DNA of 64,000 nucleotides from a virus (IMGVR_UViG_3300010883_000022:1251-65250), one strand, 5' to 3'. Counted from the first letter of the stretch, positions 26,840-49,781 are shown. Notes: generated from the letters alone by a model not told the origin. Translations and numbers: made by a program.

Positions 26840-29218
26840 TTATGTTCCCGCAATCGGGCCGAGGTCGACTCCGAGCGATCCTTCTTCTGGATAAGGGTCG
26901 ACGCTCTTCTGCTTAAGGAAGAGCACCAAGTCGCCCATAGATTCAAATGTATTGCGCAAACTATCCTCTAGCTCAGGCATATCAGCTTTGCCATAACGAT
27001 CGCCAAAGTCATCCTGGTGGAAGTAGAACATGAAGAGAATGCGACCAACGCGATCCATCCCCTTCATCAAGTCACCAAGATATTTGTCTACCATGGAATC
27101 CTGTCGAACAGCTTTCAACATAGAGCCAATCATGGCCGTATCAAAAACGTCCTTCTGGCCAAGCTGCGCTGCTTGCTGTGCGCCCTGCATTGCCATCGGA
27201 TCGGGTACTGCCGTCGGATCGTACTGAGAGGGATCTCCGCGATACATATCCGCAACAGGTTGTTCTGCGCTCATGGGGAACTGCGCAGGCACCTGCCCAC
27301 CAATCACATCCGTTGTACCCATCTGTGGCCCCGGGAAGCCTGGCGCCGTCGGGCCTGGCTGCAAGAAGGGATCCTGCGCCTGCTTCACATATTCTGCGTA
27401 CTTCACACGATAACGAGCTTTACGTTGCTGCTCGGCCTCACGCAACATTGCACGCGCCTGCTTCTCGCGGAACCCGTGATCTTTGATCAATGCGATGAAC
27501 GCCTGCTTCGGCTCCATGCGCAGATTGTTAAGCTCTACTTCATAACCACTGTGATAGATAGTCAGCTCGGCCGTCTTGGCCATGATCATCATCTCAGCAT
27601 CAGCAATGTTGCCCGGAGCTAGCGGCTCTTTACTGTCGGAATCAAAATCATCCGCGGGCTTAGCTACCGGAATGGCATAAAAATCTTCCGGAACAAACAC
27701 ATCACCCTGGGAAGCAACTAACTTGGAACCACCTTTACCCTTAAGATGAATTCGCTGTCCGTCTCTATAAGGACTGTATTCGTCATCCCATTCTGCTCGA
27801 CTAAAATCTCGGTGGCCGGCCTCGTAAACAGCGCGCCCACGTTCAGCATGAGTGTGAAAATTAACGTTGTAAACAATTTTGCCGTCTGCATCCCCGATAG
27901 TACTCTCAACACGGAAAGGAACCGTGCACTCACCTGTGCGCCCGCACAGCATATAAGTGCTTCCTTTACTAAGGCTATCAGGAACCGACAACCCCTCGAG
28001 CCAGTCGGTGTACTCATCGCCCTCTACCTTAGAGACCGCCCACACTCGCGTGGGGTGTACGTTGATCCAGTCCTTCTTCCCGCCGCCTTCCGAGCGAACA
28101 AGCGTAGCAAACTTAAACCGCCCATTCGGCCCCATCGGGGCGAGTGCAATAAAACAGCGCTCAATATCACCAGTATTTGTCAGAACCTCGTACAAGCCAG
28201 ACTCAGCTGGGTTGAACAACTTCTTCTCTACCTGCGTATTATAAGCAACGCTGACCTCGTCCCCCGCGCGCTCATCCTTGATTAGAACACCGTCACGCAG
28301 AAGCTTTTCCTGGTCTTCCTCATCAGGGCCCTCGGGGAGCGTTTCCGACCTCGTGTAGTCGATCGTGATGATTTCCAGTGCGCCAGTTTTAATCGGGTGT
28401 GGGATAGTTGTATCGATCACGGAACCGGTACGAGATGTACGCTTACCTGTCGGTTGCGCGGGCGTTAACACATTAGAAGCGTTCTTGTGTAGTTCGCAGG
28501 CTTCCTTGAGTGCGCCAGAAAGTTTATCGCCATATAGCTCAGTCGCCGCCTTAAACACCGACGGGTAGCGATTAGCGACCTCGTACATAAACTTCACAGA
28601 ATTCCCGCCCTCAGCAGCAACCACCGCCGGGAAGGTGCGCATATTTGCAAACTTTTCTTGCTCCGCGGGCGGCGTCGTCGCCATATATGCCCAAACGGGG
28701 AGGAAGTCCTCTACCCATGCAGGGTATGCAGAACTACTCTTCACCCTATTACTTGATAGTTGCTGCAAACTCGGACTCCTCACGCCGAGTTGGTGCGTAT
28801 CCTTATCTGTCCCGTCGCCAAGAATGTTAGGTTTGCGACTAAGGAGATAATTTAACCAGTTCTCCTTGAGGGGCACGAATACATCCTGATCTTTGATGTA
28901 CAAGAGCTCGTGGCCTTTGAGCTCTCCGCGCAGGAAAAAGATGGGCACGTACAGCCACATCGAACCGACCTTGAAGCCTACAACTCCAGCGGCCTTAGTA
29001 TTTTCCTGGTTGCGCTCCAGGAGCTGAAACCCAACCTCAAAATCAAGCAGACTGGGCGCCTTATCTCTTAAGTATGCATGAGCAAGATTACTCAGCGCCT
29101 GTTCAAACGGGATATCCTGCCCATCTCCACCGAGTTCGGCTTGCTTAGCCCACCCGCGCTGTTGATTATTCAGGGACAGTAGACTTTTTTGTGTACTGTG
29201 AGATAGTTGCAAGACCAT
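26840..29218 (-). CDS. Large putative virion protein with K-x-A motifs
   Basis: 792 aa; AKQA, VKSS, EKFA, AKTA, VKYA, VKQA delimit segments. Confidence 0.7.
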   Translation of the reverse strand: MVLQLSHSTQKSLLSLNNQQRGWAKQAELGGDGQDIPFEQALSNLAHAYLRDKAPSLLDFEVGFQLLERNQENTKAAGVVGFKVGSMWLYVPIFFLRGELKGHELLYIKDQDVFVPLKENWLNYLLSRKPNILGDGTDKDTHQLGVRSPSLQQLSSNRVKSSSAYPAWVEDFLPVWAYMATTPPAEQEKFANMRTFPAVVAAEGGNSVKFMYEVANRYPSVFKAATELYGDKLSGALKEACELHKNASNVLTPAQPTGKRTSRTGSVIDTTIPHPIKTGALEIITIDYTRSETLPEGPDEEDQEKLLRDGVLIKDERAGDEVSVAYNTQVEKKLFNPAESGLYEVLTNTGDIERCFIALAPMGPNGRFKFATLVRSEGGGKKDWINVHPTRVWAVSKVEGDEYTDWLEGLSVPDSLSKGSTYMLCGRTGECTVPFRVESTIGDADGKIVYNVNFHTHAERGRAVYEAGHRDFSRAEWDDEYSPYRDGQRIHLKGKGGSKLVASQGDVFVPEDFYAIPVAKPADDFDSDSKEPLAPGNIADAEMMIMAKTAELTIYHSGYEVELNNLRMEPKQAFIALIKDHGFREKQARAMLREAEQQRKARYRVKYAEYVKQAQDPFLQPGPTAPGFPGPQMGTTDVIGGQVPAQFPMSAEQPVADMYRGDPSQYDPTAVPDPMAMQGAQQAAQLGQKDVFDTAMIGSMLKAVRQDSMVDKYLGDLMKGMDRVGRILFMFYFHQDDFGDRYGKADMPELEDSLRNTFESMGDLVLFLKQKSVDPYPEEGSLGVDLGPIAGT

Positions 29219-29315: not shown

Positions 29316-31190
29316 CTATTTCCAACCTTTACTCAAACCAGAGCGCCCAAAGGTCTCGCCAGACATCAAGGAAGGAACATAACTAGTTCCGCTTGTATCG
29401 CTCACATCTCCACGGTGAAGACCTGAAAGTAAGCTACCCTGCCCACGTTTCTGCCTGGCGCCCATCATCCTAGCCGCCCAATCAGGATCGTACTCCAGTG
29501 ATTTTTCTGCTGGACGCATTTCCGGCTGAAATCGCGGAGGCTCGTCATGAACTTCCAGCCTATCAACCCCGAACTGTTTGAAATCTTTCAACATGCTCGG
29601 GCGAATCTTTGTACCAATAGTATAATGCAAGACGGGTCTCTCCAGATACTTTCCTTTTGCCTGGCGGTAATCAATTACCTGACTTCCTGGCCGCGCTTGG
29701 TACTGATTAACAAAGGAACTATACGGAATTATATCACCCGGCACATAGTCACCGACCTCTTCATCTATCCGAACGTGGTCGATCAACCCCCGGGATACCA
29801 GCTCAATATTACGCCTATGCACACTAATTCCCGCGTCAGCGTAGGCATCGCTTAGGCTCCCCACAAGGTACCTGCGCCCTTCTCCGATGCCCTTATGTTG
29901 CACAATTTCTGCCGGATTGGGGACGCCTGCAGAAAGCACATCGCCGGCCTCTACCGTGTCGCCCGGCTTTACATTTACTTGGAGGCCTGGTTTCACGTAA
30001 TGTTGCTCGCCCTGAATCGTTACGTAACTGCCCCCTTGAGGAGCCGCTTCAACCTTTTGTACTTTTCCATCAACTTGGGCATGCGCTGCGCCGTGCTTAA
30101 ATGTCTTGGGAACATTGACCAACTGGTTAATCAACGCAAAACCGCTGACACCTGCGGCAGCTCCCGCTACACCACCAGAGTGCTTAGATGAAATCTGCGC
30201 TTGGGTGAGCGGCTCAGAAACAGCTTGTGCAGCAGCCATTCCTACATAATCACCAATAGGGGATAGCCCACCGCGCTCTCTCGAGCCCACATCCCGCGCA
30301 TAAACACCGCCATCTGCCGGGCCACCTACCAACGGACTCCGGATAAGGATTTGCTTAGTCCCACCCTTCCGCAGCTCCTTCAGAATTTTCTGCGTTAATA
30401 CCGTGTTACGCTTATAACCACCCGCGGGTAATGCAAGAAGTGCGCCCTCGCTATCCATATCATCCGTATCAACGGGTAGTCCCAGTCGCGCAGCACCCGT
30501 TTCTTTATCGTCGTCTAAAGCGCTAACTAACAATCGGTGCGTTGCGCGGTTCATTTGCTTGGCCATGTACCCAGCATCAGCCGTAGCCAACTTAACATCA
30601 GTGATGCCTTTGCGCGCACCGTATGTACTAGCCCAATACTCCACAGGATTTAAACCCTCAGAGTAACTGCTAAGTACTGGGATGGGCAGCGGGCGGTCCT
30701 GGCCGTCCACATATATCCCATCGCCCGCAAGCAATCCGCGCAAGCTCCGCGCGTTGCCGCGGGACCCCGATGCGACCTGGCTCGCGAGGGGATTATTTTC
30801 TCGGGTACTTTCCTGATAAATCGCATCAATGAGCGGTTCGTTAGCGGCACCAACAGCTTTAAGGATCTCTTCGTCTTTGCGCTTATCACTAAGCTTAGGG
30901 TTGCTATGAATAGCGGCAATCTTACGACGAAGCGGTCCGTATGCTTTTTGCGCAGCTAATGATTTGCGCATATGCTTCAAACCAAATGAAGTCCCGCCAG
31001 TAGAGTAAGCAACATCACGACCAACATCGGACAACTCTTTAGCAATCTGACGGTACTGTTCAGGATACTTCTCTGCTACTTCCTGCAACAACGCATCGAT
31101 GCCCTTCTTGTCGAGCTTGCGATTGTAGTCTCGCAAGTTCGCGGGGAGGGTCTCGTTGACCATCAATTGTCCGATAGTTGTATTCAACAT
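29316..31190 (-). CDS. rpoC: RNA polymerase beta-prime C-terminal subunit
   Basis: TTIGQ..N..LP, SGSRG, EGLNPVEYW...GARKG..D...TADAGY (bridge helix), AAQAVSEPLTQ...KHSGG (trigger loop), VHRRNIELV. Confidence 0.92.
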   Translation of the reverse strand: MLNTTIGQLMVNETLPANLRDYNRKLDKKGIDALLQEVAEKYPEQYRQIAKELSDVGRDVAYSTGGTSFGLKHMRKSLAAQKAYGPLRRKIAAIHSNPKLSDKRKDEEILKAVGAANEPLIDAIYQESTRENNPLASQVASGSRGNARSLRGLLAGDGIYVDGQDRPLPIPVLSSYSEGLNPVEYWASTYGARKGITDVKLATADAGYMAKQMNRATHRLLVSALDDDKETGAARLGLPVDTDDMDSEGALLALPAGGYKRNTVLTQKILKELRKGGTKQILIRSPLVGGPADGGVYARDVGSRERGGLSPIGDYVGMAAAQAVSEPLTQAQISSKHSGGVAGAAAGVSGFALINQLVNVPKTFKHGAAHAQVDGKVQKVEAAPQGGSYVTIQGEQHYVKPGLQVNVKPGDTVEAGDVLSAGVPNPAEIVQHKGIGEGRRYLVGSLSDAYADAGISVHRRNIELVSRGLIDHVRIDEEVGDYVPGDIIPYSSFVNQYQARPGSQVIDYRQAKGKYLERPVLHYTIGTKIRPSMLKDFKQFGVDRLEVHDEPPRFQPEMRPAEKSLEYDPDWAARMMGARQKRGQGSLLSGLHRGDVSDTSGTSYVPSLMSGETFGRSGLSKGWK

Positions 31191-31214
31191 CCGTGTTTAC
31201 CTATCAACGACTAC

Positions 31215-31601
31215 CTACGCTTGGAACGAACTTCCGCAACCGCATGACTTAACAGCATTTGGATTTTCGAAAGTGAACCCCCGTTTGTCTAGTCCGTCGT
31301 GCCAATCAATAACCGTACCATCTAGGTACAGGGCGCTCTTCTTATCAACGACGACATCAACACCATGCTGGGTGTACCTATTGTCGGCTGATTTATCAAA
31401 TTCAGATTCGAATTTGAGCGAATAACTGAATCCGCTACATCCGCCGCCTTCTACACCGACTCGCAAGAAGGTTGCCGCATCGAGTACGATCTGCAGGAAG
31501 ATGGCGTCGGCTGGTGCCTGGGCCATCAGGGCAGCATTGACCTGGTCTGTCTTAACTTTTGTGACTTCTGCCGCTGCTTTTTCCGTTATAGAAACTGGCA
31601 T
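31215..31601 (-). CDS. iscA: A-type Fe-S carrier (IscA/HesB family)
   Basis: [40 protein letters not shown]. Confidence 0.93.
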
Positions 31602-31604
31602 AAT

Positions 31605-32177
31605 TTATGCACTTCCCCAGCTATTAAATACTGTTGTATATGGTTTCAAATGGTCAATAATATCTTCGAGCATCAGGACATCAGAAATACACTTCTTAGT
31701 AATCTGGTCCATCGCTTTTTTATCGCCGTCAAGAATGGCCCGTAACCAAACCTGACCATCCACATTCTTTTTCTGATTAACTCCCAGCACAGATGCGATG
31801 CGCTCTAGGCTGTTGTAGCCCAACCTCAAACTTTTGCGCGCGATCTTTACCGGATCTACAATCTTAAAATCAGGCAACGGCGGAAGATCGTTAACTAACA
31901 ACCTGGTACGCAAGAAAGGCAGATCGAAATCTACCCCGTTATGCGCTACCAAGATGTCGTACTTCTTCAACTCATTTGCTACTGCTTCAACAATCTTCGA
32001 ATCATCCGACCGGGCTTTCGCCCAGTTTGGATTCAACTTATCAGCTCGAAACACTGTAGGCTTCTTAAACGGTGTCTTGATAACAGCCGCCAGAATAATC
32101 CCAAAATCTGCCTGTAACGAACTACACTCTAGATCAAAGCACGCAGATCCAATCATATGCCGCTTTGTGCCACTCAT
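31605..32177 (-). CDS. DEDD/RNase H-like 3'-5' exonuclease (YprB-like)
   Basis: FDLECS, VAHNGVDFDLPFL, CISDV. Confidence 0.85.
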   Translation of the reverse strand: MSGTKRHMIGSACFDLECSSLQADFGIILAAVIKTPFKKPTVFRADKLNPNWAKARSDDSKIVEAVANELKKYDILVAHNGVDFDLPFLRTRLLVNDLPPLPDFKIVDPVKIARKSLRLGYNSLERIASVLGVNQKKNVDGQVWLRAILDGDKKAMDQITKKCISDVLMLEDIIDHLKPYTTVFNSWGSA

Positions 32178-32208
32178 ATAAGTTCCCTCGCTTCCTTGCT
32201 CAGTACAT

Positions 32209-32448
32209 TTATGGCCTAATACGCGGAGATATATCTACCTCGTCCACTAGGACAGTTTTATTAACCCCCAATGATTCAAGTAATGAATTGAAGTCCTTAT
32301 CTCCAACCTGCGACGTATAGTACGCACCTGGATGAAATTCAACTATCAACGAAAGTGGGTTACCAGTTTCTTCATCATATACGACAACCCGGGTAGTTTT
32401 TACCTTTAAAGGCTTGCCGTTCTCATCAAATAATTCTGCACGTAACAC
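32209..32448 (-). CDS. Hypothetical protein
   Basis: 79 aa, tightly packed in operon. Confidence 0.65.
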   Translation of the reverse strand: MLRAELFDENGKPLKVKTTRVVVYDEETGNPLSLIVEFHPGAYYTSQVGDKDFNSLLESLGVNKTVLVDEVDISPRIRP

Positions 32449-32450
32449 AC

Positions 32451-33227
32451 TTATTGACCCCGACTATTCGCATTACGCGCCATCTGTGCAAGTGCCGCAG
32501 TCCTATTAAAAATATCCGCTGCAGAAGGGGATATGCGCGCTTCACCAGTAGAACCAGTAAACGGCGAACCAACTGTTGGTACCCCTGACAACTCTTCAGA
32601 AACCTTAAGCATGTCACCACCGCCGCCGCCGTCGCCCATCGGAGGCCCGCCTCCGGCTTCAGGGCCCATTGGCATTGCTGGTTGAATTGCCTCGATCGGT
32701 TTGATCGCACTGCCTGGACCGGCAAGATCTACTGGCGGCGCCTCCAGGCCGTCAGCACCTTCGGGAGCCGTAGTGCCTTCCGGTGGCGGACCAAGCAAAG
32801 CTTCCGGAGGTAAACTAACGCCCATCGCGTTAGAAATGGCAACAATCAGCTTTTCCATGTTGTACAGCTTGGTGTTCAATTCTTCCGGATCAAATTTCTT
32901 TGCCTTGGCTCCGGCAGGACCCATAGCTCCGACGCCACCGCTGACGCCGGCATTAGAAAGCTCCTCCTGAATAATACTCCTAACATCCTCCGTAGGCGGA
33001 GGCGGCGGAGCATCCATTGGCGGCTCCATCGGAGGAGGTCCGCCCATTGCGGGATCACCGCCCATTGGAGGTCCACCCATTGGAGGTCCACCCATTGGAG
33101 GTGCGCCGCCCATTGCGGGATCACCGCCCATTGCGGGATCACCGCCCATGGGTCCGCCGGGAGGAACAATCCCCTGTTTCTCAAGCTGCCATGTTGCGAG
33201 CTTCAAAAGTTCTCTATTAATACCCAT
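32451..33227 (-). CDS. Pro/Gly/Met-rich low-complexity virion/scaffold-like protein
   Basis: GDPAMG/GPPMG repeats (about 33035-33155); LKLA, EKQG, LKVS. Confidence 0.7.
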   Translation of the reverse strand: MGINRELLKLATWQLEKQGIVPPGGPMGGDPAMGGDPAMGGAPPMGGPPMGGPPMGGDPAMGGPPPMEPPMDAPPPPPTEDVRSIIQEELSNAGVSGGVGAMGPAGAKAKKFDPEELNTKLYNMEKLIVAISNAMGVSLPPEALLGPPPEGTTAPEGADGLEAPPVDLAGPGSAIKPIEAIQPAMPMGPEAGGGPPMGDGGGGGDMLKVSEELSGVPTVGSPFTGSTGEARISPSAADIFNRTAALAQMARNANSRGQ

Positions 33228-33238
33228 TTCAAGGTCTC

Positions 33239-36200
33239 CTAACCGTTTAATATTGTTACTTGCTGACCTGCATCAATTTCACCACGGCGATAAGCACGAA
33301 TAGCCTCTGCCTTTGAAGAAAAAGTTCTAGGGCCTTTTCTATTCTTCTTTGTAGAGGCTGCGTACAAACCACCTGTATATTCCTGAGACGGCTTGTAATG
33401 CACATTAAAATCACGCGCTGAAAACAAATTACGAGATGGCATTAGTTTGTTAATCGCCTCGTCCACTGCACTTGATGATACAGGTACATGATACTGCATT
33501 GCATCCCCGTCAAAATCTGCGTTAAAACCCCCGACAATAAGCGGGCTTACCTGCATTGTGTCATTTTTTACCAGCTGAGGCCAGAAAGCCATAACACCAT
33601 ACCGATGAAGTACCGGCGCACGATTAATGACAACAGGACGCTTAGACATAATTTTGAGCAACTCTTTGCGCGCAACAGCAGAGCGATCCTTTACCGCACG
33701 TGCTGCATCTAACTTGGGAATACCGCGCCTACCCAGATCTCTAATAATAAGCGGCTGATAAACCTCCCACGCTTTTTCCTCAGGTATCCCAACTTGATCC
33801 ATATCCAAATCAGGATTAGGCGTGATAGCTGCCCTACCTACTAAGTCGGTCGTATTGCTCAGTAGCTTTCTTTGCACAACGCTGTATTTTGGATTTTTAC
33901 CGAAAACTTCCCGAAGGATCCCGCGAACTTGTTTTTCTTGAGCATCACTACTAATAGGATCTCCCAAACCCGTTACTGCTTTAAATGCATCATAAACAGA
34001 TAGCCGTTCTTCACCAATATCATCAGATTTCTTAGCGTTCTCGCGTAGAAACTTATTGGCTTCAAACAAATCTCGGTACAAGTAATTCGTGTCGGAAACC
34101 AGCTGGTTTCCTGAGCCTTGCATAACACTTATTGGACGAAATGCAGGGGGCAACACGGGTGCACGAGAAAGCATCCAATCCCGCGGATGTAGCTTCTGTT
34201 TCTCTGCGCCTTTAAAGTATCGCAAACGCTTCACAGCAGCATTACGCTTCTCACCTTTACTCGACTTGACATCTTCTCGCGCCTGCGCTGTTGCCTGCTT
34301 CAAGTTTATCTTATCCAACGCATGCGCAATTGCGCGAGAACCTGTCTGCCCCTGGAATTCTTGCTTACCGGATAAGATATCCCGGAAATTAGATTCCGTA
34401 AGCCCCAGCACGCGCATGATAGGTTCTTGCATTGCTGGGTTTGGCATAGGCTCAGCAAGACGAATAAACGACCACTTATTGCCACCGTGCCCGCCCGTCG
34501 CCGAAGGATCAAACAAACCACCCTTTAACGGCTTTAGACCCTGCTTCCAGTCGACAGTGTTGGAACCCGTAATCTCTCTATCGCCGGCTAACTTGGTTAC
34601 ATCTGCCTCCGTCATAGCCAACAGATGAGTGCGCGTTCCCTTCCGAACTGGGTTGATTCCCGCCGCCCGCAGCTGATTCACAAATTTCTCATAAACCATG
34701 GGAACCTTTGGTGTCGCGGGCTTGAACCCCGCCTGGAATGCCGACCAGTAATCAGGATTCATTTGTCCCCGAATCATCTTCGCGTCCCTGATAACCTCAG
34801 TAGCGCCATGCGAAAGCAACGCGTTAAGCTCAAGCATTCCAATCGTCTTAGCACCTTCCTCGCCACCTTTAGACGGACGCCCCTCTGACGTGTATCCCCC
34901 AAAGCTACGCCCTGTTCCCTTAGACTCGGCAACGTGGTGCAATTTCATGAAAAAGCGATTACCAACAAAGACATCATTAATCTGGCGCCCGTTAGTGGGG
35001 TCCGTAATCGTTTCCAGATCCTGTATATCATTTGCTTCAAGTTCGCGCATTGCGAACTCGGTGAGGTCTTCAATATTTTCAAAATCCTGGATCTTATATG
35101 GCTTCCCCGTCCGCTCTGCAATTTTACCAAGCGCCGCTTCTATCATTTGCGCAGGATTAGTTCGGCTAATAATACCGAGCGGATTTAACAATAGTTCAGA
35201 AGAACGACCATCAGCCGCTACGGGCATTTCTTCATCTGGAATGATCTCAGAGATAACGCCCTTATCACCGTACCTACCTGAAAGCTTATCGCCCACTTTT
35301 GCCGTAGCCGTAGACTTAACCGTAACTAGGATTCCGTGCTTGGTTTTGGCAACATCTGTGACAATGCCGGGCGCATGGTGGGACCACATTTGGGTTTTAT
35401 CAATGTACTTGGGGGCCCGCCCACGGGAGACCTGGTTAGCTGTCCGTTCTCGTTCTCGGACAACAAGTGCCAACGGATCTCCGCTGTTGACGGTCGTTCC
35501 TGGTTTAATGACTCCGTCATTGTCCATTTTCTCCAAAGTAGTGCGATCAAATTTGCCAGGAAACATAGCGGTGAAACCAGCCTTGCTAGTCCGCACCTTT
35601 TCCTCAGAAAAATCGACCGTGGTCTTGTACATATGTTGCGAAGACAACCGGTTAGCAAACGATTCACTAATAACAACGGCATCCTCGAAATTAAGGCCGC
35701 GAAATGGAACGTATGCTACACGTGCATTTAACCCAAGAGCCGTCGTTCCCTTGTCGTCTACGAAATTAGACTTAGCTAACAATGCGCCCTTCGGAAACCG
35801 CTGCCCCTTCTGAACAACAACATCCTGATGAATATACGTTTTACGGTTATATGGATAGTTGTCGTACAGCTCTATCGTCTCAACAGCACCGTTACCATAT
35901 TTAACAGTGATCTCATCTTTATCGACCTTCGTAACAACCCCGCCATGCTTTGCGCGAACGGCGCCCATTTTAGTTCCATACCGATTTTCAAAACTATCAT
36001 CCTCACCCGGAATACCCGCTTGAACCAACGGAGCTTCCGCATTATCCAGCGGGAGTGCTTGCGTTAACATCCTGGCCGCCATCACAGATCTCTGCGCCTT
36101 AGTTGCCGATTTCATCGGGATCATATTGGCAAGAAAAGAAAAAGCGCCCTCCATATGCGGAACCTCGTAATCAACCGCGTGAGGAGACACGTGCCGAACA

Positions 36201-37693
36201 GTGCCGCCAGACATGGCAGCTACCCGTGATTTACCCGATCGCAGCTCTCCTGGAAAAGCCACAACAGAAGACGTAATAGTCTCCGGGTCTCGCCACACCG
36301 TTTCACCGCTGCGAACATCTCGCATCTTTGTGTAAATCTTACCGTCCCGTCCTTTACGCGCATTACCCGCCATACGAAGATCGACGCCCGCACGCTCTGA
36401 CTCAGGGGTTATGATCGGATCAATGAAACCAAAGTGGCTGGACTGAACATTCCGCGCTTCCGCGGGCACACCACGTGCGCTCTGAATGCCGCCATCGCCC
36501 ATCTTTGAAACACGGCTTTGCTGCTCAAAGATTTGCGCAGGATTGATCCCTTCCAACGGCTGCGCCAGAGAACCAAACAACACCGAATCCAGGCTCTTAT
36601 TCATCAAGCCCGTACCAATACTCTGCACGTTTTTCTTAGATGTGGCTTTCCAAAGTGCGCGGTTAAGCAAACCTTTATTCTTGCCAATACGCTCTGCAAG
36701 CAAATCCTCAGGACCCAAAAAACGCATGAACGCCAAGGAGTCCCGATCATCAACCTCGGCCGGGTCTAATCCCAATTTAGCTAGTACAGCTGGATCCGCT
36801 CTATTCTGAATAGCCAATAGCTTCCGAGTACTAGCAAGTAAACTTTCAACAGTTACTCGCTTAGTTGGTTTACCCAGCGTCCGCTCTGTTGTTGCGGGAT
36901 CCAACTCCATCTTTGCAAATGCCTTAGCAATTGCTTCCTGGCGAGATCGCGCGTCCGTATCAACACCGCCGAGAACAAACTTCTTATAGATCTTCGCCAA
37001 GTCCGCTGGAGACGCCTTTTGCATATTCGCCGAGGCGAGCTCGCCCCAAGCTGTCTGTAGTTCCTTATCCGTCGCGCCCATTGCGCGGAGAATAGAAATC
37101 AAGGGGATATTCGCGTTACCTACGTTCGCCTTAAAAAGGCCCGTTGCGGGGTCCAAATGGATACGATGCGATAAACCCGTACCAGGCTTTACGTTTATGC
37201 TGGATTCAAGCTCGCCGTTTTCTTTTTCCCGATGATAAACTCCGGGTCGCAGTCGCATTTGATTAGACAACGTATACTCATTGCCGTTGCGGATAAACGT
37301 GCCGCGGCTAGAAAAGTAAGGCACCTGCGCAACCGTTGCGCGCTTATTATCAAGCACCGTCCCGGAAGCATTATCAACTAGCTGCCAAGTACCGCGTAAA
37401 CTACGGCGCAGGTTACGTTGCTCCAAAAGCGCGCGTTTTTGATCAGCGAGAGAAATTTCCTTCTCATCGTCGTCGTAATCTACGTCAACAAGTTGTAACG
37501 TATGCGTCTGGTTAGAAACTGGTTCAATCGCGCGCGCAGCTGCTCGCACATTTTCATAAATGCCGCGCCGCACCGCCGCAGAATCCCCAAATTCTCGAAG
37601 GCCTGCGGGCGCACGAGAGGAAGGCGCCAACGGCTTCGCGGGTGGTGTCACCAACGACGGGGGCGGATTGCGGGGATCAAGTACACTTGGCAT
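33239..37693 (-). CDS. rpoBC: RNA polymerase beta fused to beta-prime N-terminal half
   Basis: Beta: GTFIRNG, HFGFIDPIITPES, NFEDAVVIS, GDKLSGRYGDKG, NPLGIISRTN, MKLHH. Beta-prime: VLPPAFRP, NRAPVLHR, NADFDGDAM. One uninterrupted frame. Confidence 0.95.
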   Translation of the reverse strand: MPSVLDPRNPPPSLVTPPAKPLAPSSRAPAGLREFGDSAAVRRGIYENVRAAARAIEPVSNQTHTLQLVDVDYDDDEKEISLADQKRALLEQRNLRRSLRGTWQLVDNASGTVLDNKRATVAQVPYFSSRGTFIRNGNEYTLSNQMRLRPGVYHREKENGELESSINVKPGTGLSHRIHLDPATGLFKANVGNANIPLISILRAMGATDKELQTAWGELASANMQKASPADLAKIYKKFVLGGVDTDARSRQEAIAKAFAKMELDPATTERTLGKPTKRVTVESLLASTRKLLAIQNRADPAVLAKLGLDPAEVDDRDSLAFMRFLGPEDLLAERIGKNKGLLNRALWKATSKKNVQSIGTGLMNKSLDSVLFGSLAQPLEGINPAQIFEQQSRVSKMGDGGIQSARGVPAEARNVQSSHFGFIDPIITPESERAGVDLRMAGNARKGRDGKIYTKMRDVRSGETVWRDPETITSSVVAFPGELRSGKSRVAAMSGGTVRHVSPHAVDYEVPHMEGAFSFLANMIPMKSATKAQRSVMAARMLTQALPLDNAEAPLVQAGIPGEDDSFENRYGTKMGAVRAKHGGVVTKVDKDEITVKYGNGAVETIELYDNYPYNRKTYIHQDVVVQKGQRFPKGALLAKSNFVDDKGTTALGLNARVAYVPFRGLNFEDAVVISESFANRLSSQHMYKTTVDFSEEKVRTSKAGFTAMFPGKFDRTTLEKMDNDGVIKPGTTVNSGDPLALVVRERERTANQVSRGRAPKYIDKTQMWSHHAPGIVTDVAKTKHGILVTVKSTATAKVGDKLSGRYGDKGVISEIIPDEEMPVAADGRSSELLLNPLGIISRTNPAQMIEAALGKIAERTGKPYKIQDFENIEDLTEFAMRELEANDIQDLETITDPTNGRQINDVFVGNRFFMKLHHVAESKGTGRSFGGYTSEGRPSKGGEEGAKTIGMLELNALLSHGATEVIRDAKMIRGQMNPDYWSAFQAGFKPATPKVPMVYEKFVNQLRAAGINPVRKGTRTHLLAMTEADVTKLAGDREITGSNTVDWKQGLKPLKGGLFDPSATGGHGGNKWSFIRLAEPMPNPAMQEPIMRVLGLTESNFRDILSGKQEFQGQTGSRAIAHALDKINLKQATAQAREDVKSSKGEKRNAAVKRLRYFKGAEKQKLHPRDWMLSRAPVLPPAFRPISVMQGSGNQLVSDTNYLYRDLFEANKFLRENAKKSDDIGEERLSVYDAFKAVTGLGDPISSDAQEKQVRGILREVFGKNPKYSVVQRKLLSNTTDLVGRAAITPNPDLDMDQVGIPEEKAWEVYQPLIIRDLGRRGIPKLDAARAVKDRSAVARKELLKIMSKRPVVINRAPVLHRYGVMAFWPQLVKNDTMQVSPLIVGGFNADFDGDAMQYHVPVSSSAVDEAINKLMPSRNLFSARDFNVHYKPSQEYTGGLYAASTKKNRKGPRTFSSKAEAIRAYRRGEIDAGQQVTILNG

Positions 37694-37708: not shown

Positions 37709-38806
37709 TCAGACGGACGCCGAAATGGGCTCGTCTTCTTTTTCTTCATGCAAAACCTCCGCACCCGGAGTGAGGTAAATCGGCTGAGGGCGTCGGCGAG
37801 CTAAATCAGCTTTGCGTCGACGCATTGCTTCACTTAGCGGGCTCTTGCTGCGCGATTTGTTACGCGTCCAGTTATACGCCATCATTCCTGTAGGTATTCC
37901 AGAAATTGCAGCCATCATAGTGAGCAATCCCCCATACTGCTTAAGGCCCTTAGTGATGTCTCCGGTGGTAACATTTTCTAGACCACCAAGATTAGGCTGC
38001 GGAAACTCGATTCTTGGTACCTCCGCCAGCTTAACAAAACCAGCGTACAGTTCGTCCAACGACGAGCCTAATACGGAAGCTTCCTTACTCGCCTCAAATT
38101 GCTCTGCAATAGCCGTTTCATATTCGTCTTTGGCATCTCGTACAGCTTCTTCCCGCAACCGCTTTCTACGGCGCGAAGCAAGGTAATCACCCAGAGCATT
38201 TCCGCCCCAAAAACCACCCAAGCCTAAGCCAACCATCGCGGGCCATTTGGCTATGGGAGCCGAATCACTGCCCAACCACGAGGTCTCGGCCTCTAGCTTG
38301 TTCGCTTCATTATATGGGCTCGCTGATTGCTGTGCGGCTTTATCCAGCCGATCTTCTTCATCCTCTTCCGGTTTCCGCCGACTAACAAATTTACGTTGCG
38401 GTACCGAAAGCTCCATGGGCAGGGAAGATGTGCCAGCTCCCGCCATTTGCGCCACACTCGGACGCCTTAAGGCTTTGACTAACGAAGCTCCGCCGCCAAG
38501 CAACGCCGCCCCGCCGCCCACCGCAAGAAGCTGCATCAGGTTTTTGTTGTACAGCAACTCTGGGTCGCTCAGGATAGTCGACGGAGTCGTCTCGTAAAGC
38601 AGACTAGATTCTTTGCGCATATCCTGCGCGTGCTTAATCAAGTCCGGAGCAATGTCGATGTAAAGGCGCTCGTTTGCAAAAGAGCCCCCCGTCGCCTCGG
38701 ACTGCTTGCGCATATCCTGCGCATGCTTGATCAAATCCGGAGCAATATCAATGTAAAGGCGCTCATCATCGATTGAGGCGGACTGTTTGTGTATTTGTTT
38801 CTGCAT
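37709..38806 (-). CDS. Glycine-zipper internal virion protein with duplicated N-terminal tag
   Basis: ERLYIDIAPDLIKHAQDMRK x2; three Gly-rich hydrophobic helices; no Cys. Confidence 0.65.
   Translation of the reverse strand: MQKQIHKQSASIDDERLYIDIAPDLIKHAQDMRKQSEATGGSFANERLYIDIAPDLIKHAQDMRKESSLLYETTPSTILSDPELLYNKNLMQLLAVGGGAALLGGGASLVKALRRPSVAQMAGAGTSSLPMELSVPQRKFVSRRKPEEDEEDRLDKAAQQSASPYNEANKLEAETSWLGSDSAPIAKWPAMVGLGLGGFWGGNALGDYLASRRRKRLREEAVRDAKDEYETAIAEQFEASKEASVLGSSLDELYAGFVKLAEVPRIEFPQPNLGGLENVTTGDITKGLKQYGGLLTMMAAISGIPTGMMAYNWTRNKSRSKSPLSEAMRRRKADLARRRPQPIYLTPGAEVLHEEKEDEPISASV
38613..38764 (-). repeat. 59-nt coding duplication, period 93 nt
   Basis: Copies 38613-38671 and 38706-38764; 5 differences, all synonymous. 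Confidence 0.95.
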
Positions 38807-43657: not shown

Positions 43658-44128
43658 TTACTTTACCACGTCTATAGTCATATTCTGAACATTACTAGTA
43701 ACCCGCGTAACCCGGGTTACTCCCATACGAAAAAGAGTTGCTTCAAGCCAGGGAAAACTCAGGGAAATATGATGAAAATTGCCGGGATAATCCTGCCCCC
43801 CGTTAATGATCTTTGACAATCTTTCCCAACTTATCTCACCTGACTTTGCTTGATGAAAATACGTCGTACATATCTTCTCTATATCCGGAGTCTTGATAAG
43901 CAAACGGCCGCCCGGTCGTAAAACTCGCAGCCACTCGGCTAATGCTTTCTCATACTCATAAATACTGAAATGCTCAATAATGTCGAGCGCTACAACTTCA
44001 TCCACACTCTCGTCAGCATAATCCAGATTCCGCACATCTCCGCGCACAACACCGGGAATGTCCCGCTCATCTATGTTGATATACCCTTCCTTGATGTCAG
44101 GGCCGCAGCCCACGTTAAGCTTAAGCAT
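43658..44128 (-). CDS. Class I SAM-dependent methyltransferase
   Basis: LNVGCG, DIIEHF, RVLRPGG. Confidence 0.88.
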   Translation of the reverse strand: MLKLNVGCGPDIKEGYINIDERDIPGVVRGDVRNLDYADESVDEVVALDIIEHFSIYEYEKALAEWLRVLRPGGRLLIKTPDIEKICTTYFHQAKSGEISWERLSKIINGGQDYPGNFHHISLSFPWLEATLFRMGVTRVTRVTSNVQNMTIDVVK

Positions 44129-44130
44129 GC

Positions 44131-44790
44131 TTACAATCCCCCCAAGTACTGATCTCCGGGGATCTCCTTATGCGGTTGCCAGGTGCTATCGCCCCGTCTC
44201 CAACCTATATGTAACGTAGTTCCCGGCAAAACGTAAAAAGAAAAAGCGCTATCAAGACGAGCCATAGCCCCGATAATGTGCCAATCATATTGCTGATTTC
44301 GCGGTAGTGGGCGTAATTTCTGCCAATCTTCAGTGCGCATCACAGCTGTACCAGCAGTGCATTTCTTCTTAATGATCCACTCACGACCATGCACTGTAGT
44401 GCGCCCGACCTCTGCATGGTCTGTACTGTTATGACCTTTAGCTAGAAAACACGATGGGTTCTCTTTGAGCATTCTGATGTAAGTGCTAAGCGGCTCTAAA
44501 TACATGAAATCATGGTCGGTAGTAAGGATGTACTTATACAACTCATCGACGTTATCAGGGATGGCGTCTTGATACCCGCCGCCAATATTTCTATTGGTGT
44601 CGAAAAGGGTTTTCTCCACACCTTCTATGTTATTGATAACAGAAACTGTCTCAGCATTTGATCCGTTATCAATAATATGAATGTCTGCCGTAATAACATC
44701 CTCAGCAATGCGCGCCTTTAATGACTCCACCGTCTGCACTAGAAAGTCCGGGCGATTCCAGGAGATGACGTAGATACCTAAATCCTTCAC
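44131..44790 (-). CDS. GT2-like glycosyltransferase
   Basis: VISWNRP, IIDNGS, TDHD. Confidence 0.78.
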   Translation of the reverse strand: MKDLGIYVISWNRPDFLVQTVESLKARIAEDVITADIHIIDNGSNAETVSVINNIEGVEKTLFDTNRNIGGGYQDAIPDNVDELYKYILTTDHDFMYLEPLSTYIRMLKENPSCFLAKGHNSTDHAEVGRTTVHGREWIIKKKCTAGTAVMRTEDWQKLRPLPRNQQYDWHIIGAMARLDSAFSFYVLPGTTLHIGWRRGDSTWQPHKEIPGDQYLGGL

Positions 44791-45386
44791 GGTAAAGTCC
44801 TATCCACCAAGTGAGCTTGAAACGCTTCAAACCGCTCACAAAGTTCAAAAGGACCCCTATGATACATGCGCGGTGGATACGCATAACAATTACTAATCTG
44901 ATCATCTGCCAACAATCGCACTAGCTCTATACTACTGTGAACAAACCCCGGAAGGATGCAACTAAGCCGCCCATACAGATCAAACGAGGTATCAGCTGCG
45001 AAGACAGGGTAGGTCGTCTTACTAATGATGGGGCCTGCGTCAAAATTCTCCACCATCTTGTGAAAAGTGATGCCCTGCTCCCTATCCCCGTTAACAAGCG
45101 TGTGCGCCAAGATATCCAGGCCCCCATAATCAGGAAGAAGGCCGGTGTGCACGTTGTACGCGTTCTCGATGTCAACCAGTTTGCGATCCCACTGAATTGA
45201 CAACTTGATGTCGTGCTCAACATCAAAACTATCTAATACAGGTAACGAGATGTTCCCCGGGAATGCCGGACTTCTAGACGGGACATAGCCCACCAAGTTA
45301 TAGAAGCCCGCGAGGTGCTCAACCACAAGTTCGGTGAGATAAGATGATCCCAGGATGATTATTTTGTAATCCATTACTAACTCCAC
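44787..45386 (-). CDS. Sugar N-formyltransferase (Fmt-like)
   Basis: NVHTGLLPDYGG, GITFHKM..FDAGPII. Confidence 0.85.
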   Translation of the reverse strand: MELVMDYKIIILGSSYLTELVVEHLAGFYNLVGYVPSRSPAFPGNISLPVLDSFDVEHDIKLSIQWDRKLVDIENAYNVHTGLLPDYGGLDILAHTLVNGDREQGITFHKMVENFDAGPIISKTTYPVFAADTSFDLYGRLSCILPGFVHSSIELVRLLADDQISNCYAYPPRMYHRGPFELCERFEAFQAHLVDRTLP

Positions 45387-45390
45387 GCAA

Positions 45391-46515
45391 CTACCAACCC
45401 TCTTTTATACAGTCAACGATATGCTGACGATCCTCGTCGCTTACCCACCAACCACAAGGAATACAAATCATGTCCTGACTAAGTATATCCATACTTGGCA
45501 GCGCCGCACGAAACTCTTTAAGACAATGATGCTTATCGTTTCGATCGTGCACCTGACTAACACCAATGCCGCACCCCTTCATCTTTTTAACGAAGCCCGG
45601 ACGGCCGCTCACGCGCAGTGTATACACCCAGTACGATGATGACCTATCTGAACTAGTTTCCAGCAGCTGAACACCAGGAGTACCAGCCAACTGCTCATCG
45701 AAAAACTGCCCGTTACTGCGATGATGTGCCACCAACTCAGAAACATGCGGAAAGTTACACAAACCAATAGAGGCGTTCACATCATTCATATGATACTTGA
45801 ACCCCCACTCCTCGATATTCTGCTCGCAGCGGAAATCAAGGCTTCGAGTCCTATCCAACCCGTACCACCGCAACCTTTTTGCGCGCTGATGCTCTTCATA
45901 GCTCGGTGACACAAGTAAGCCACCGTCTACCGTCGTGAAGTGCTTGATAGCCTGGAAGCTGAAGCAGCACGCATTCCCATGATTGCCCAGCAGCTTATCC
46001 TTGTACGTTGCGCCCCACGCATGTGCACAGTCTTCTATGACTGTAGGATAAAACCCGTAAAGATCCTGACAACGAATCTGCAGTTCCTTAAGTGCATCCA
46101 AATCACAGGGGTACCCACCCCAGTGCACAACCATGATAGCCTTGGTCTTAGGACTCAGCTTCCTAGCCAAATCATTTAAACACATATTACAAGTGCCCGG
46201 ATCAACGTCGACCCAGCGAAGGCGCGCCCCTGTTGCAAGGATCGCAAAGTTGGTGGCTGTGCAGGTCAACGGAGTAGTTAGCACCTCGTCGTCCGGCCCC
46301 AGGTCACACATGTGCGCAGCAAGCGTTAACGCCGATGTGCCGCTGTTAAGCGTATTCAAATACGGCGTACCCAGGTAATCAGACAACGTAACTTCAAACT
46401 CTTCTACCCGAGGCCCCTGCCCAATATATCCGGACAAAAGCGTATCAGAGACTGCGCTCGAAACGTCCTCCGACATAAAAACTTTGAACAAGGGAATATT
46501 CTTTTCCGACGCCAC
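45391..46515 (-). CDS. DegT/DnrJ/EryC1/StrS PLP sugar aminotransferase
   Basis: NSGTSAL, IEDCAHA, FSFQAIKHFTTVDGG. Confidence 0.93.
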   Translation of the reverse strand: MASEKNIPLFKVFMSEDVSSAVSDTLLSGYIGQGPRVEEFEVTLSDYLGTPYLNTLNSGTSALTLAAHMCDLGPDDEVLTTPLTCTATNFAILATGARLRWVDVDPGTCNMCLNDLARKLSPKTKAIMVVHWGGYPCDLDALKELQIRCQDLYGFYPTVIEDCAHAWGATYKDKLLGNHGNACCFSFQAIKHFTTVDGGLLVSPSYEEHQRAKRLRWYGLDRTRSLDFRCEQNIEEWGFKYHMNDVNASIGLCNFPHVSELVAHHRSNGQFFDEQLAGTPGVQLLETSSDRSSSYWVYTLRVSGRPGFVKKMKGCGIGVSQVHDRNDKHHCLKEFRAALPSMDILSQDMICIPCGWWVSDEDRQHIVDCIKEGW

Positions 46516-46517
46516 AA

Positions 46518-47405
46518 CTACGCCCCTCCCAAGATATGAAAACCACCGGAATCCCGCTCACAAGTAGATGCCGGCGCAAGTCCCAACAACTGCCCGCGTT
46601 CAAGTTGAACCTGATGACCCATGATTGCGCCTATGGGTAATTCAGCCGGAGCAAACACAAGTGGGCGCGGTATAAGAGAGTTATCCAAGTAGATAATGTT
46701 CTTCTCAGCCGTTGTCGGATTCCTCGTACAATGCATAAAAGAAATACAATAATCAGCAGACATGCTGCGGATACTCAGTCCTTTATTAGCAAAAGATCTT
46801 AAGTATCCCACCTGTGTCGCCGGGCCCTCCCGCATAACATCTGGCGGTAGATGGAAAGAACCACCGTACTTGTTAAATAGGTCAACGTTAATAAGCCCAA
46901 TAGAGCAAGCAGCATGCGGTCCCCACTTAGAAGGATCCAACCAATGTCCAACACAGATTAAAACTGATTCCTTATCTACATCAGTTGAATAGCTGTAGGA
47001 CAACCATTCCTTGTCAAAGCCACGCATGACTGGAAGATAGTCATCTTCAAAAAGAAATGCGAAGTTAATACCTTCACAATGTTGCTGAAGCGCGAGATTC
47101 CACCCACCGTAAGACCAGTGCGCGGGATTTTGCTTACTAAAAACAACGGTCGGGATGCCCGTTTCCTGCTCAAAAGCAGCAGCCTTATCCTCCAAGAGAA
47201 GGAAGTGCTCTTCGTGGCCCGGGTCTAGACTGCAAACAAGGACTACCTTGTCCAGACAAGTGGCATATCTACGAAGAGCCTCGAGATACGTATCCGCGTG
47301 GCAACGTGCATGACTGTGATTAACACGATTGTGCGCGCCATCATATGACTCTGGCCTACCAAAATAGACCGCACAAATATACGCCACACGGTTTCCTTGC
47401 CACAT
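46518..47405 (-). CDS. Putative glycosyltransferase-like protein
   Basis: SYGGW, FLFEDDY; glycan cassette context. Confidence 0.55.
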   Translation of the reverse strand: MWQGNRVAYICAVYFGRPESYDGAHNRVNHSHARCHADTYLEALRRYATCLDKVVLVCSLDPGHEEHFLLLEDKAAAFEQETGIPTVVFSKQNPAHWSYGGWNLALQQHCEGINFAFLFEDDYLPVMRGFDKEWLSYSYSTDVDKESVLICVGHWLDPSKWGPHAACSIGLINVDLFNKYGGSFHLPPDVMREGPATQVGYLRSFANKGLSIRSMSADYCISFMHCTRNPTTAEKNIIYLDNSLIPRPLVFAPAELPIGAIMGHQVQLERGQLLGLAPASTCERDSGGFHILGGA

Positions 47406-47407
47406 AC

Positions 47408-47893
47408 TTAAGGGGCTCCATTTTTAATACTCCACGCAATTGCGCGAAATATGTTAACAGCTGCCGCCCGCTTCTCCGCAGACAGCTGAACATCTTCGAG
47501 CCCCAAATGCTCCTCGAGAACCGCGTCCTTTACTGCACCGAACCCAGGGTACTTACCAACAAGTTCCGTACGCTGCAACATCAGCTTCTCTGCCCGCATA
47601 AAGCCTTCTCGGATCGTGCCGGTTGTCTTTATGATATCAGTGTCACGATCGATGACGTCCGCAAAGTCGGCATAAAACTGCGCAGTGTCAGCGGCATCTA
47701 CGGGATCAGAAATAAGACCCCGTAAAGCTTTCGTGGCCTCTTTAAGCTCTGCAGTCGGCTCAGCTATTTCCGTACGATAGTGCCCATCATGCAAAGCCGG
47801 GGGCGGATCAGGCTCCGAGTTCCTGGGAAACAAACAACCCGGGCACGTCAAAACAACCAACAACAATAACGACATAGTATTGCGTAGCATCAT
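47408..47893 (-). CDS. Predicted lipoprotein
   Basis: LLLLVVLTCPGC lipobox-like N-terminus followed by a Pro linker. Confidence 0.65.
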   Translation of the reverse strand: MMLRNTMSLLLLVVLTCPGCLFPRNSEPDPPPALHDGHYRTEIAEPTAELKEATKALRGLISDPVDAADTAQFYADFADVIDRDTDIIKTTGTIREGFMRAEKLMLQRTELVGKYPGFGAVKDAVLEEHLGLEDVQLSAEKRAAAVNIFRAIAWSIKNGAP

Positions 47894-48303: not shown

Positions 48304-48324
48304 TAACGCACTTTCCTTTGATTC

Positions 48325-48561
48325 CTAAACCGTCGGTGTGACGGGCTTGTTACTTGCAATAAACTTGCGAACAAAGTTAGCGGCCACAGCCCATCCAGCT
48401 GCAACAATAGGAGTCCACAGACCAAAATCGGTGCCAGAAACCCATTCGCTACCATACGTAAGCGCCGCACCTGCAAGTGCGATCAACATACCCTTACCAA
48501 GCTTCGTCAAATCGACTGAATTAATTGAGAAGCTACCGCTTCCATCACTAGGAACTGCCAT
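48325..48561 (-). CDS. Putative holin
   Basis: Start MAVPSD after AAGGAG; 78 aa, 2 TM helices, basic C-terminus. Confidence 0.55.
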   Translation of the reverse strand: MAVPSDGSGSFSINSVDLTKLGKGMLIALAGAALTYGSEWVSGTDFGLWTPIVAAGWAVAANFVRKFIASNKPVTPTV

Positions 48562-49774: not shown

Positions 49775-49781
49775 ATCTGAA

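Follow-up and report, generated by a model that had tools for sequence, protein, structure and literature searches.

What kind of RNA polymerase (RNAP) is encoded by a virus in which the gene for the beta subunit continues into the first half of beta-prime, the second half of beta-prime having a gene of its own? The question is raised by a 64,000-nucleotide (nt) stretch of DNA, hereafter the window, which corresponds to bases 1251-65250 of the 65,250-bp IMG/VR virus record IMGVR_UViG_3300010883_000022. The record is a metagenome assembly with an estimated completeness of about 31%, and nearly all genes of the window are carried by the minus strand. We consider it likely that the two polymerase genes of this locus encode the only RNAP of a large (about 200 kb) marine tailed phage, a reduced two-chain enzyme of the bacterial type that would work with a sigma factor resembling protein gp10 of Salmonella phage Arash and would probably be carried in the virion.

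Gene layout and domain content

The fused gene (P0001) and the separate gene for the C-terminal half of beta-prime (P0002) are spaced by 2,048 nt, with P0002 downstream and four open reading frames (ORFs) in between (coordinates in Table 1). Within P0001, beta runs without a stop codon into beta-prime as far as the NADFDGD motif. Pfam domains were found in P0001 at residues 380-445 (Rpb2_3), 581-935 (Rpb2_6, E 5e-55), 1130-1222 (Rpb1_1) and 1347-1415 (Rpb1_2, E 2.4e-22), and in P0002 at residues 179-475 (Rpb1_5, E 1.9e-25). Judged by these E-values, a chance origin of the domain matches can be excluded.

An earlier note on this DNA, produced by a model from the sequence, had described a fusion of beta with the N-terminal half of beta-prime (beta-prime-N), a separate gene for the C-terminal half (beta-prime-C), both catalytic barrels in the fused chain, and the bridge helix and trigger loop in a gene about 2 kb downstream starting at a TTxG motif. 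Its coordinates and lengths (1484 and 624 amino acids, aa) proved exact and the Pfam domains agree with its description. The beta lysine motif (801-813) and NADFDGD (1391-1397) are both in P0001, and P0002 starts with MLNTTIGQ (TTIG at residues 4-7). The enzyme is also compact, as claimed, with 2108 aa for both chains versus 2749 aa for Salmonella beta plus beta-prime.

Conservation of the fusion

Could the fusion have been produced by mis-assembly, by the loss of a stop codon, or might a bacterial rpoBC fragment have been taken for a viral one in binning? Of the words sampled from the gene, 65-95% were found in each of five marine or seawater metagenome runs. The contigs of four marine runs from four studies, one of which may be the source sample of the window, showed no insertions, deletions or joints over the fused gene. 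A 2480-nt contig of run X1 spans positions 33735-36214, junction included, and two overlapping contigs of run X2 cover the junction as well. The longest records in runs X1 and X4 reach 167,936 letters.

The same arrangement was found across the family. A word-indexed protein search with residues 900-1484 of P0001 listed 120 homologous clusters, 56-100% identical to the query region and located on contigs of up to 212 kb. In every one of the 120 listed clusters a single protein combined Pfam domains of beta with those of beta-prime. Its length was 1430-1530 aa in 102 clusters and greater in 11; of the 7 shorter ones, nearly all came from short contigs. A profile scan of IMG/VR confirmed at least 585 related stretches and returned 74 distinct loci. 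The whole span from beta to beta-prime-N is in one open frame in 70 of the 74, the other four being truncated at the end of the contig (L149, L158, L169) or interrupted within beta (L176). A stop codon between beta and beta-prime was found in none of the 74 loci, and beta-prime-C was in the same ORF in none of them. A separate beta-prime-C ORF lies downstream in 65 loci, at a distance of 825-4981 nt (median 968), and 8 of the 9 loci without it have less than 4 kb of downstream sequence.

Given that independent contigs cross the junction, that no related locus has a stop codon there, that isolate genomes have the same layout and that the tree described below splits the family from bacteria with full support (SH-aLRT 100), an artefact of any of these three kinds has a negligible probability. 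An assembly error at the fusion, the risk that the earlier note itself had pointed out, is contradicted by the contigs of the four runs and by the 74 loci, and is excluded.

Anatomy of the two chains

A hidden Markov model (HMM) of the family was aligned to Salmonella RpoB and RpoC, both taken from a bacterial contig filed among phage records. The alignment of P0001 covers RpoB 113-1337 and RpoC 30-63 and 160-550. The beta part is complete and carries REFGD near its N-terminus (33-37), the fork and rifampicin-pocket region (373-402) and the barrel lysine motif GDK..GDKG. Two lineage-specific insertions are affected: only about 65 residues match RpoB 225-419, the region of SI1, and RpoB 933-1048, which corresponds to SI2, has no counterpart. 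At RpoB positions 516 and 526, two classic rifampicin-resistance sites, P0001 has glutamate instead of aspartate and glutamine instead of histidine, and resistance of the enzyme to rifampicin is predicted from these residues.

The junction, as aligned, is a small net deletion with no added linker, and the segment is kept in all aligned family members, including Arash and Vibrio phage D69. The two-barrel core is present: a beta barrel with two catalytic lysines and a beta-prime barrel with NADFDGD in P0001, and a bridge helix and trigger loop in P0002 that align to RpoC. Among the matches listed, [AM]DFDGD was found in 120 of 120 homologues. The clamp-helix region of beta-prime, which is the usual docking site of sigma region 2, is retained.

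The alignment of P0002 covers RpoC 573-946 and 1138-1287. An AlphaFold model of this chain had a mean pLDDT (predicted local distance difference test) of 75.5, with the final 63 residues below 50, and its best fold matches in the PDB were all bacterial beta-prime chains (E about 1e-26, TMq 0.38-0.44, about 520-645 aligned columns).

P0001 ends at about RpoC 553 and Met1 of P0002 falls at about RpoC 569, so that about 15 residues are gone at the cut. The final 184 residues of P0001 could be aligned with the gamma subunit of Synechocystis, residue 1481 corresponding to gamma 558 of 626. Residue 20 of P0002 aligned with residue 8 of Synechocystis RpoC2 and residue 131 with residue 124 of plastid beta''; P0002 starts about 12 residues before the residue aligned with the RpoC2 start and about 7 before the start of plastid beta''. 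Beta-prime is cut at the rpoC1/rpoC2 position, in keeping with the statement of the earlier note that cyanobacteria split rpoC near this region. According to the available text of a review, the virion and non-virion beta-prime subunits of phiKZ-type phages have the same post-barrel cut as cyanobacteria (PMC7598289). Because cyanobacteria, plastids and, on that account, phiKZ-type phages are cut there too, a cut of beta-prime at this point is recurrent, and what is unusual is that a whole beta is covalently joined to beta-prime-N. Trans-splicing of the two chains was rejected, as the end of P0001 and the start of P0002 both lie within RpoC-aligned sequence, leaving no room for intein halves.

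Zinc sites and cysteines

The segment of RpoC that is replaced in P0001 (64-159) includes the ligands of the first zinc site, Cys70, Cys72, Cys85 and Cys88, whose positions were verified in Salmonella RpoC. The replacement is shared, the motif G[GN]LFD..TGG being found in 118 of 120 homologues among the matches listed. At both zinc sites the ligand positions are occupied by non-cysteine residues or fall in a deletion. The chains hold no cysteine at all (0 of 1484 residues in P0001, 0 of 624 in P0002, 0 of 2108 together), and most other proteins of the window contain about 1-4% cysteine. Of the listed homologues, 105 out of 120 are cysteine-free; the 15 exceptions include 10 proteins of more than 1800 aa, the size class that bears inteins. 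The four cysteines of the second site are kept in Arash, in D69 and in a single-chain relative (L028), and Arash and D69 have a few cysteines. The loss of zinc sites and cysteines fits a protein that survives packaging and ejection.

Cultured relatives

Isolates were found by tblastn against deposited phage genomes (records OQ632216.1 and OZ195729.1). Salmonella phage Arash has the same layout in gp206 (1525 aa) and gp216 (606 aa), 31% and 25% identical over 96% and 92% of the queries, and so have Vibrio phages D69, D181 and D148, over 77-96% of query lengths; a homing endonuclease interrupts the gene in D181 and D148. Arash and D69 share with the window beta and beta-prime-N in one frame, a separate beta-prime-C nearby, the form of the junction and the lack of a first zinc domain. 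A gp10-like sigma gene is found in the complete relatives of the window, and a gp218-like virion gene lies near beta-prime-C. They differ from the window in sequence (identity of only 31% for the fused chain and 25-28% for the C chain), in keeping the cysteines of the second zinc site, in having, in addition, a sigma factor positive for Sigma70_r2 and in the position of the RNAP gene, which follows the portal gene there and not in the window.

The earlier note had allowed that the architecture might match a phage RNAP family already characterised. The layout is indeed present in databases and in these cultured phages, and the window enzyme is one more member of a very large phage RNAP family; no paper describing the layout was found, in a search that left bioRxiv supplements and subscription journals aside. 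The available parts of a jumbo-phage comparison (PMC7824862), of PMC7598289, of a 2026 review (PMC13282480), of PMC7481178 and of the Arash paper (PMC10585845) contain no description of it. The last names gp206 and gp216 beta and beta-prime, the fusion being unmentioned in its available text, and among papers mentioning Arash, judged by title and abstract, only this original one deals with the polymerase.

Comparison with other split and fused polymerases

Cyanobacterial and plastid RNAPs have zinc sites, alpha and omega, and RpoC2 contains a large SI3. They resemble the window enzyme in the position of the beta-prime cut (rpoC1, gamma or beta-prime; rpoC2, beta-prime or beta''). They differ in that beta is a separate subunit and gamma is about 65 residues longer than P0001, whereas the window chains have no zinc sites and no SI3, and alpha and omega were found in none of the five records described below.

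Full rpoB-rpoC fusions of the Helicobacter and Wolbachia type (cited in the available text of PMC7483510, with Zakharova 1999 and Lane and Darst 2010 as references) likewise join the C-terminus of beta to the N-terminus of beta-prime in one chain, but they contain the whole of beta-prime and belong to cellular enzymes with alpha, omega and zinc sites, whereas P0001 stops at about RpoC 553. A further bacterial example, L099 (1356-7403), encodes a bacterial-type full rpoB-rpoC fusion of at least 2016 aa that runs off the contig end; the contig is labelled Gammaproteobacteria, but the tree places it among Woesebacteria rows and away from the phage family.

Polymerases of the phiKZ/AR9 type are also phage-encoded two-barrel enzymes without alpha or omega, with the post-barrel cut in beta-prime (PMC7598289, available text), and one of their sets is carried in the virion. 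They differ in that beta is in two or three pieces, with no beta/beta-prime fusion; a sigma70 homologue is lacking as well, according to the available text of PMC7824862 and PMC13282480. Moreover, each genome has two paralogous sets, virion and non-virion, versus one here, and the sequences are far more divergent. The contention of the earlier note that phiKZ-type enzymes are split differently is thus right for beta, which is whole and fused to beta-prime-N in the window, but not for beta-prime, whose cut is common to both (PMC7598289). Its placement of the enzyme nearer to bacterial RNAP is upheld, matches to phiKZ-like PHROG families being much weaker than those to full-length beta-like and beta-prime-like families.

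Other phages that are not phiKZ-like have other gene orders and are 24-27% identical over parts of the query: in Yersinia phage YerA41 a bacterial-like RNAP is encoded by three genes (beta-prime-N, beta-prime-C, beta) without fusion, and Rhizobium phages such as RHph_Y65 have a whole beta-prime and no fusion. The mReC clade of Weinheimer and Aylward (PMC7481178) was considered and is probably a different group. In the available text, its beta and beta-prime are given as distinct proteins, for the most part adjacent, and a contig often has two sets; none of the three IMG sample ids belonging to our first loci occurs in the inspected part of supplement 4 of that paper, where each protein is listed with a single best hit.

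One-, two- and three-piece forms within the family

Two loci encode the whole enzyme (beta, beta-prime-N and beta-prime-C) in one frame, in contrast to the window: L028 (162.5-kb contig; 8926-15126), with 2066 aa and no intein, and L051 (204-kb contig; 8869-17487), with 2873 aa and two inteins. They scored 1287 and 1137, respectively, with the family HMM, and L028 shows the zinc-domain deletion of the window family but keeps the second zinc site. Both contigs were binned as bacterial metagenome-assembled genomes (MAGs), cyanobacterial and Bacteroidales respectively, and in both the RNAP gene is immediately preceded by a portal gene whose identity to Arash gp204 is 33-35%.

In the 219-kb relative L006 (9938-15184 and 16844-21205) two ORFs of 1067 and 598 aa take the place of one fused gene, and a weak intein-N signal was found where it is broken; a group I intron in the gap was rejected for want of an Rfam match. 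Its beta-prime-C ORF has 1453 aa, with about 830 extra C-terminal residues. Because single-chain members, two-chain members and the split in L006 occur together, the family comprises enzymes made of one, two and three pieces. A LAGLIDADG intein was found in L004 at P0001 position 1071/1072. Among 120 listed close relatives of P0002 (P0170-P0289) many reach 1102-2107 aa through extra sequence after the beta-prime-C part, which contains PF18905 and kinase-like AAA_33/AAA_18 domains in some and inteins in others; the C-terminus of the beta-prime-C chain seems, from these sequences, to be a site of domain accretion. A different kind of break was observed in L176 (9746-15383), where beta is divided at family-HMM position 784/788 into two overlapping ORFs, which could be a frameshift or recoding site.

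Accessory subunits and sigma factor

As the earlier note had stated, no alpha, omega or sigma gene is recognisable in the window: none of these three families was matched at E<=0.001 by the 62 other ORFs scanned, nor in the whole 65,250-bp record. This absence carries little weight because the record covers only about 31% of the genome. Five records were searched together: the window record, two IMG/VR genomes with 100% and 98% completeness (G001 and G002, whose RNAP is 47-52% identical to that of the window), Arash and D69. Alpha (PF01000) and omega (PF01192) were each found in none of the five records and in all 14 cellular genomes used as positive controls, and the beta-prime barrel (PF00623) was found at one locus in each of the five. 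The two complete relatives have a single RNAP set, a sigma-like gene and no alpha or omega gene.

Region 2 of Sigma70 was detected only in Arash and D69 among the five records. In G001, a 254-aa protein matched Sigma70_r3 with 30.7 bits and region 4 weakly; its identity is 26% over the full length to Arash gp10 (E 3e-16) and 41% to its G002 counterpart. Several of its 48 homologues are named 'specialized sigma subunit' by the source. When G001 beta-prime-N and this protein were submitted to complex prediction, the score was 0.57, versus 0.22 for the best of three controls, with at least 64% contact agreement between runs and a pLDDT of the partner of at least 68. The score mark used was reached by 116 of 157 solved complexes and by 2 of 215 mismatched pairs, and scores up to 0.60 comprise only 18 of the 157 solved complexes and both of the mismatches that passed. 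The score may reflect likeness to solved sigma/beta-prime complexes, and the model weakly suggests that G001 beta-prime-N binds the gp10-like factor.

Phylogeny

A tree was computed from beta plus beta-prime-N with 83 rows and 1069 HMM match columns (LG+G4, quick search, SH-aLRT support only), leaving out YerA41 (low occupancy) and L027 and L051 (incomplete span). Its 68 bacterial rows were chosen by two peptide patterns and comprise Patescibacteria, Bacteroidota, Chlorobiota, Planctomycetota, Staphylococcus, two Gammaproteobacteria and a few mislabelled MAG contigs. The sample is without cyanobacterial RNAP, Actinomycetota and an outgroup, and long branches meet in the tree. One branch, with a support of 100 and about 1.85 changes per site long, separates the 15 rows of the phage family from the bacterial rows. 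The window belongs to a 12-row clade with P0007 and P0009; the order among Arash plus D69, L028 and that clade is not settled by the tree. On this sampling the tree excludes a recent capture of the family from any sampled phylum, and it supports neither a bacterial nor a pre-bacterial origin. The term 'bacterial-derived' used in the earlier note is not borne out by the tree, in which the family forms a long branch outside the 68 bacterial rows and is nested in none of the sampled phyla.

Assembly, promoter recognition and packaging

In the arrangement that we propose, the first chain would comprise all of beta and beta-prime to just past the catalytic barrel, joined without a linker, and the second the remaining beta-prime with the bridge helix, the trigger loop and the C-terminal module. 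The cut in beta-prime lies at a surface position, one also used by cyanobacteria, plastids and, per review, phiKZ-type phages. In alpha-dependent RNAP assembly, alpha is needed for the step that joins beta and beta-prime. Because the complete relatives are without alpha or omega, the covalent link between beta and beta-prime-N most likely stands in for the alpha-dimer assembly platform, and in this clade we infer an active enzyme that is independent of alpha and uses its sigma-like factor. Promoters would most likely be recognised by a phage-encoded gp10-like protein of the sigma70 family, of about 250 aa, docking on the clamp helices.

By analogy with Arash, the virion would probably contain both the enzyme and its sigma factor, and with them transcription of the injected DNA would begin. 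Mass spectrometry of Arash virions, as given in the available text of PMC10585845, detected gp206 more than any other protein, with 3516 spectra versus 1333 for the major capsid protein, along with gp216 (1210), the 'sigma' gp10 (467), the helicase gp217 (1148) and gp218 (1149).

Several observations weigh against parts of this proposal. The Arash authors warn that abundant infection-phase proteins might contaminate purified particles (PMC10585845, available text), and packaging would be deduced from a relative whose RNAP is only 31% identical. The cysteine-free state is not required for the reported packaging, because Arash and D69 keep the second zinc site and a few cysteines. No neighbour in the window matches a known structural family in Pfam or PHROGs, and no gp10-like sigma gene is present in the window, which holds only about 31% of the genome. 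In a comparison by eye with RpoC, the trigger loop of P0002 keeps the histidine, but the arginine three positions ahead of it is missing. The contact with sigma region 4 may differ, because the HMM alignment has a gap of 8 residues in the flap-tip region. Finally, in one of the 74 loci (L177) the first 10 kb downstream contain no beta-prime-C.

The same two-chain enzyme might instead be made after infection and transcribe middle or late genes, with the host RNAP serving the early ones and the Arash signal being carry-over. We regard this as rather unlikely. Carry-over of highly expressed proteins was raised by the Arash authors themselves (PMC10585845), no neighbour in the window was identified as structural by family search, and there is a single RNAP set per genome, whereas phiKZ-type phages use a separate virion set (PMC7824862 and PMC7598289, available text). 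However, carry-over sits uneasily with gp206 being the most-detected protein of Arash particles, above the major capsid protein, and with the presence there of gp216 and gp10 (PMC10585845). Virion genes also adjoin the polymerase genes, namely the portal gene in Arash, D69, L028 and L051 and the gp218-like gene in the window, and the cysteine-free and zinc-free state is conserved.

Alternatively, the phage chains could be a catalytic core only, which borrows host alpha, omega or sigma for assembly and promoters. This would agree with the lack of alpha and omega genes in all five records and with a bacterial-type enzyme that keeps its clamp helices. It is nevertheless improbable, since the phages have a sigma-like factor of their own, the divergence of the family from each sampled bacterial RNAP is about 70%, and the hosts are as different as Salmonella and Vibrio, with members in marine and freshwater metagenomes; the beta/beta-prime-N fusion would, besides, remove the step that requires alpha.

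The reading as a virion-carried, sigma-dependent two-chain enzyme is the one we prefer; it is well supported on the structural side and inferential for activity, use of the sigma factor and packaging in the marine clade. A broader claim is tentative, and we give it somewhat less than even chances: that the family is a third kind of virion-carried multisubunit RNAP beside the phiKZ and crAss types, self-sufficient, free of alpha, omega, zinc and cysteine, using a sigma70 factor, entering with the DNA, belonging to a deep lineage outside the sampled phyla and with chains that were repeatedly re-cut. If active as supposed, the enzyme would be the smallest natural sigma-dependent bacterial-type RNAP so far (2108 residues in two chains). 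It would make testable the contributions of the alpha platform and of the zinc sites, the purpose of lineage-specific insertions, and the packaging and ejection of a large polymerase, experiments that the cultured phage Arash enables. The one-, two- and three-piece forms provide a natural series in which to follow how the boundaries between subunits of an essential enzyme move. In aquatic metagenomes the family is very common, as the number of confirmed IMG/VR stretches attests, and its members, annotated merely as 'beta subunit', would be a strong marker for genome annotation and phage taxonomy.

Neighbouring genes and promoter search

The conserved gene order of the clade is a 137-aa ORF, the fused gene, a cysteine-free ORF of about 230-260 aa (L004, L005), beta-prime-C and a protein of about 800 aa. 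The features of the window locus are collected in Table 1.

Table 1. Features of the polymerase locus, with positions counted from the first base of the window.
Feature	Position (nt)	Strand	Remarks
Fused gene P0001, 1484 aa	33239..37693	-	Single open frame; complete beta, then beta-prime N-half to about 90 residues past NADFDGD
Beta part, residues 1-1019	34637..37693	-	Complete; ends at GINP aligned with RpoB 1334-1337 of 1342
Beta/beta-prime junction, about residues 1012-1030	34604..34660	-	About 15 residues replace the last 5 of RpoB and the first 29 or so of RpoC
Lost beta-prime zinc-binding domain, residues 1058-1086, GGLFD..TGGHGG..W	34436..34522	-	RpoC 64-159 replaced by about 30 cysteine-free residues
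Beta-prime clamp-helix region, residues 1200-1240	33974..34096	-	Retained; aligned to RpoC about 260-300
NADFDGD catalytic loop, residues 1391-1397	33503..33523	-	Motif
Separate beta-prime C-half gene P0002, 624 aa	29316..31190	-	Pfam Rpb1_5
Bridge helix, P0002 residues 188-222	30525..30629	-	Alignment to RpoC
Second zinc site position (RpoC Cys888/895/898; Cys814 upstream)	30285..30344	-	All four ligands replaced
Trigger loop, P0002 residues 320-343	30162..30233	-	Alignment to RpoC; SI3 (RpoC 947-1137) absent
365-aa cysteine-free ORF	37709-38806	-	Just upstream of fused gene; matched only L004
258-aa cysteine-free ORF	32451..33227	-	Directly downstream of fused gene; conserved there in L004, L005
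RNase_H-like 3'-5' exonuclease	31605-32177	-	Between the RNAP genes
HesB/IscA-like Fe-S assembly protein	31215-31601	-	Between the RNAP genes
792-aa ORF	26840..29218	-	Directly downstream of beta-prime-C; counterpart of Arash gp218 'structural protein' family

Most proteins of the window had no Pfam or PHROG match. For the 258-aa ORF there was none in either collection, and its Atlas leads were all below 0.9 and pointed to unnamed viral clusters. The ORFs for the exonuclease and the HesB/IscA-like protein had no match in the relatives' loci searched. The assignment of the 792-aa ORF, which gave no usable Atlas hit, follows a chain of matches: it is 38-47% identical to its counterparts in L004, L005 and L006, that of L004 matched D69_0266 (E 1e-10), and D69_0266 matched gp218 (E 4e-42). 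In the 365-aa ORF, a segment of about 20 residues is duplicated at the N-terminus and hydrophobic stretches are rich in glycine, so that it is probably a membrane protein. The 258-, 792- and 365-aa ORFs were also considered as hidden alpha-like subunits; the idea was dropped, given the lack of usable Atlas leads and the membrane-like character of the 365-aa ORF.

A GTAKAMT-like intergenic box noticed by eye was not enriched in the window (21 matches versus 23.1 expected). Promoter-like sites of the sigma70 type were fewer than in shuffled sequences (8 versus 16.7), and terminator-like sites were at chance level; we propose no promoter. No RNA data set containing the gene was found among 24 listed runs.

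Away from the polymerase genes, a run on the minus strand (43658-58983) encodes a methyltransferase, a glycosyltransferase of family GT2, a formyltransferase, a DegT-type aminotransferase, a GT92-like protein, a 651-aa GT2 protein and an 841-aa fusion of GT8 with a methyltransferase. Its content suggests the synthesis of modified amino sugars for decoration of the virion, the host surface or DNA. Inside this glycosyltransferase region, an ORF on the same strand (52764-53264) carries a T5orf172/MUG113 domain and is possibly a homing-type nuclease.

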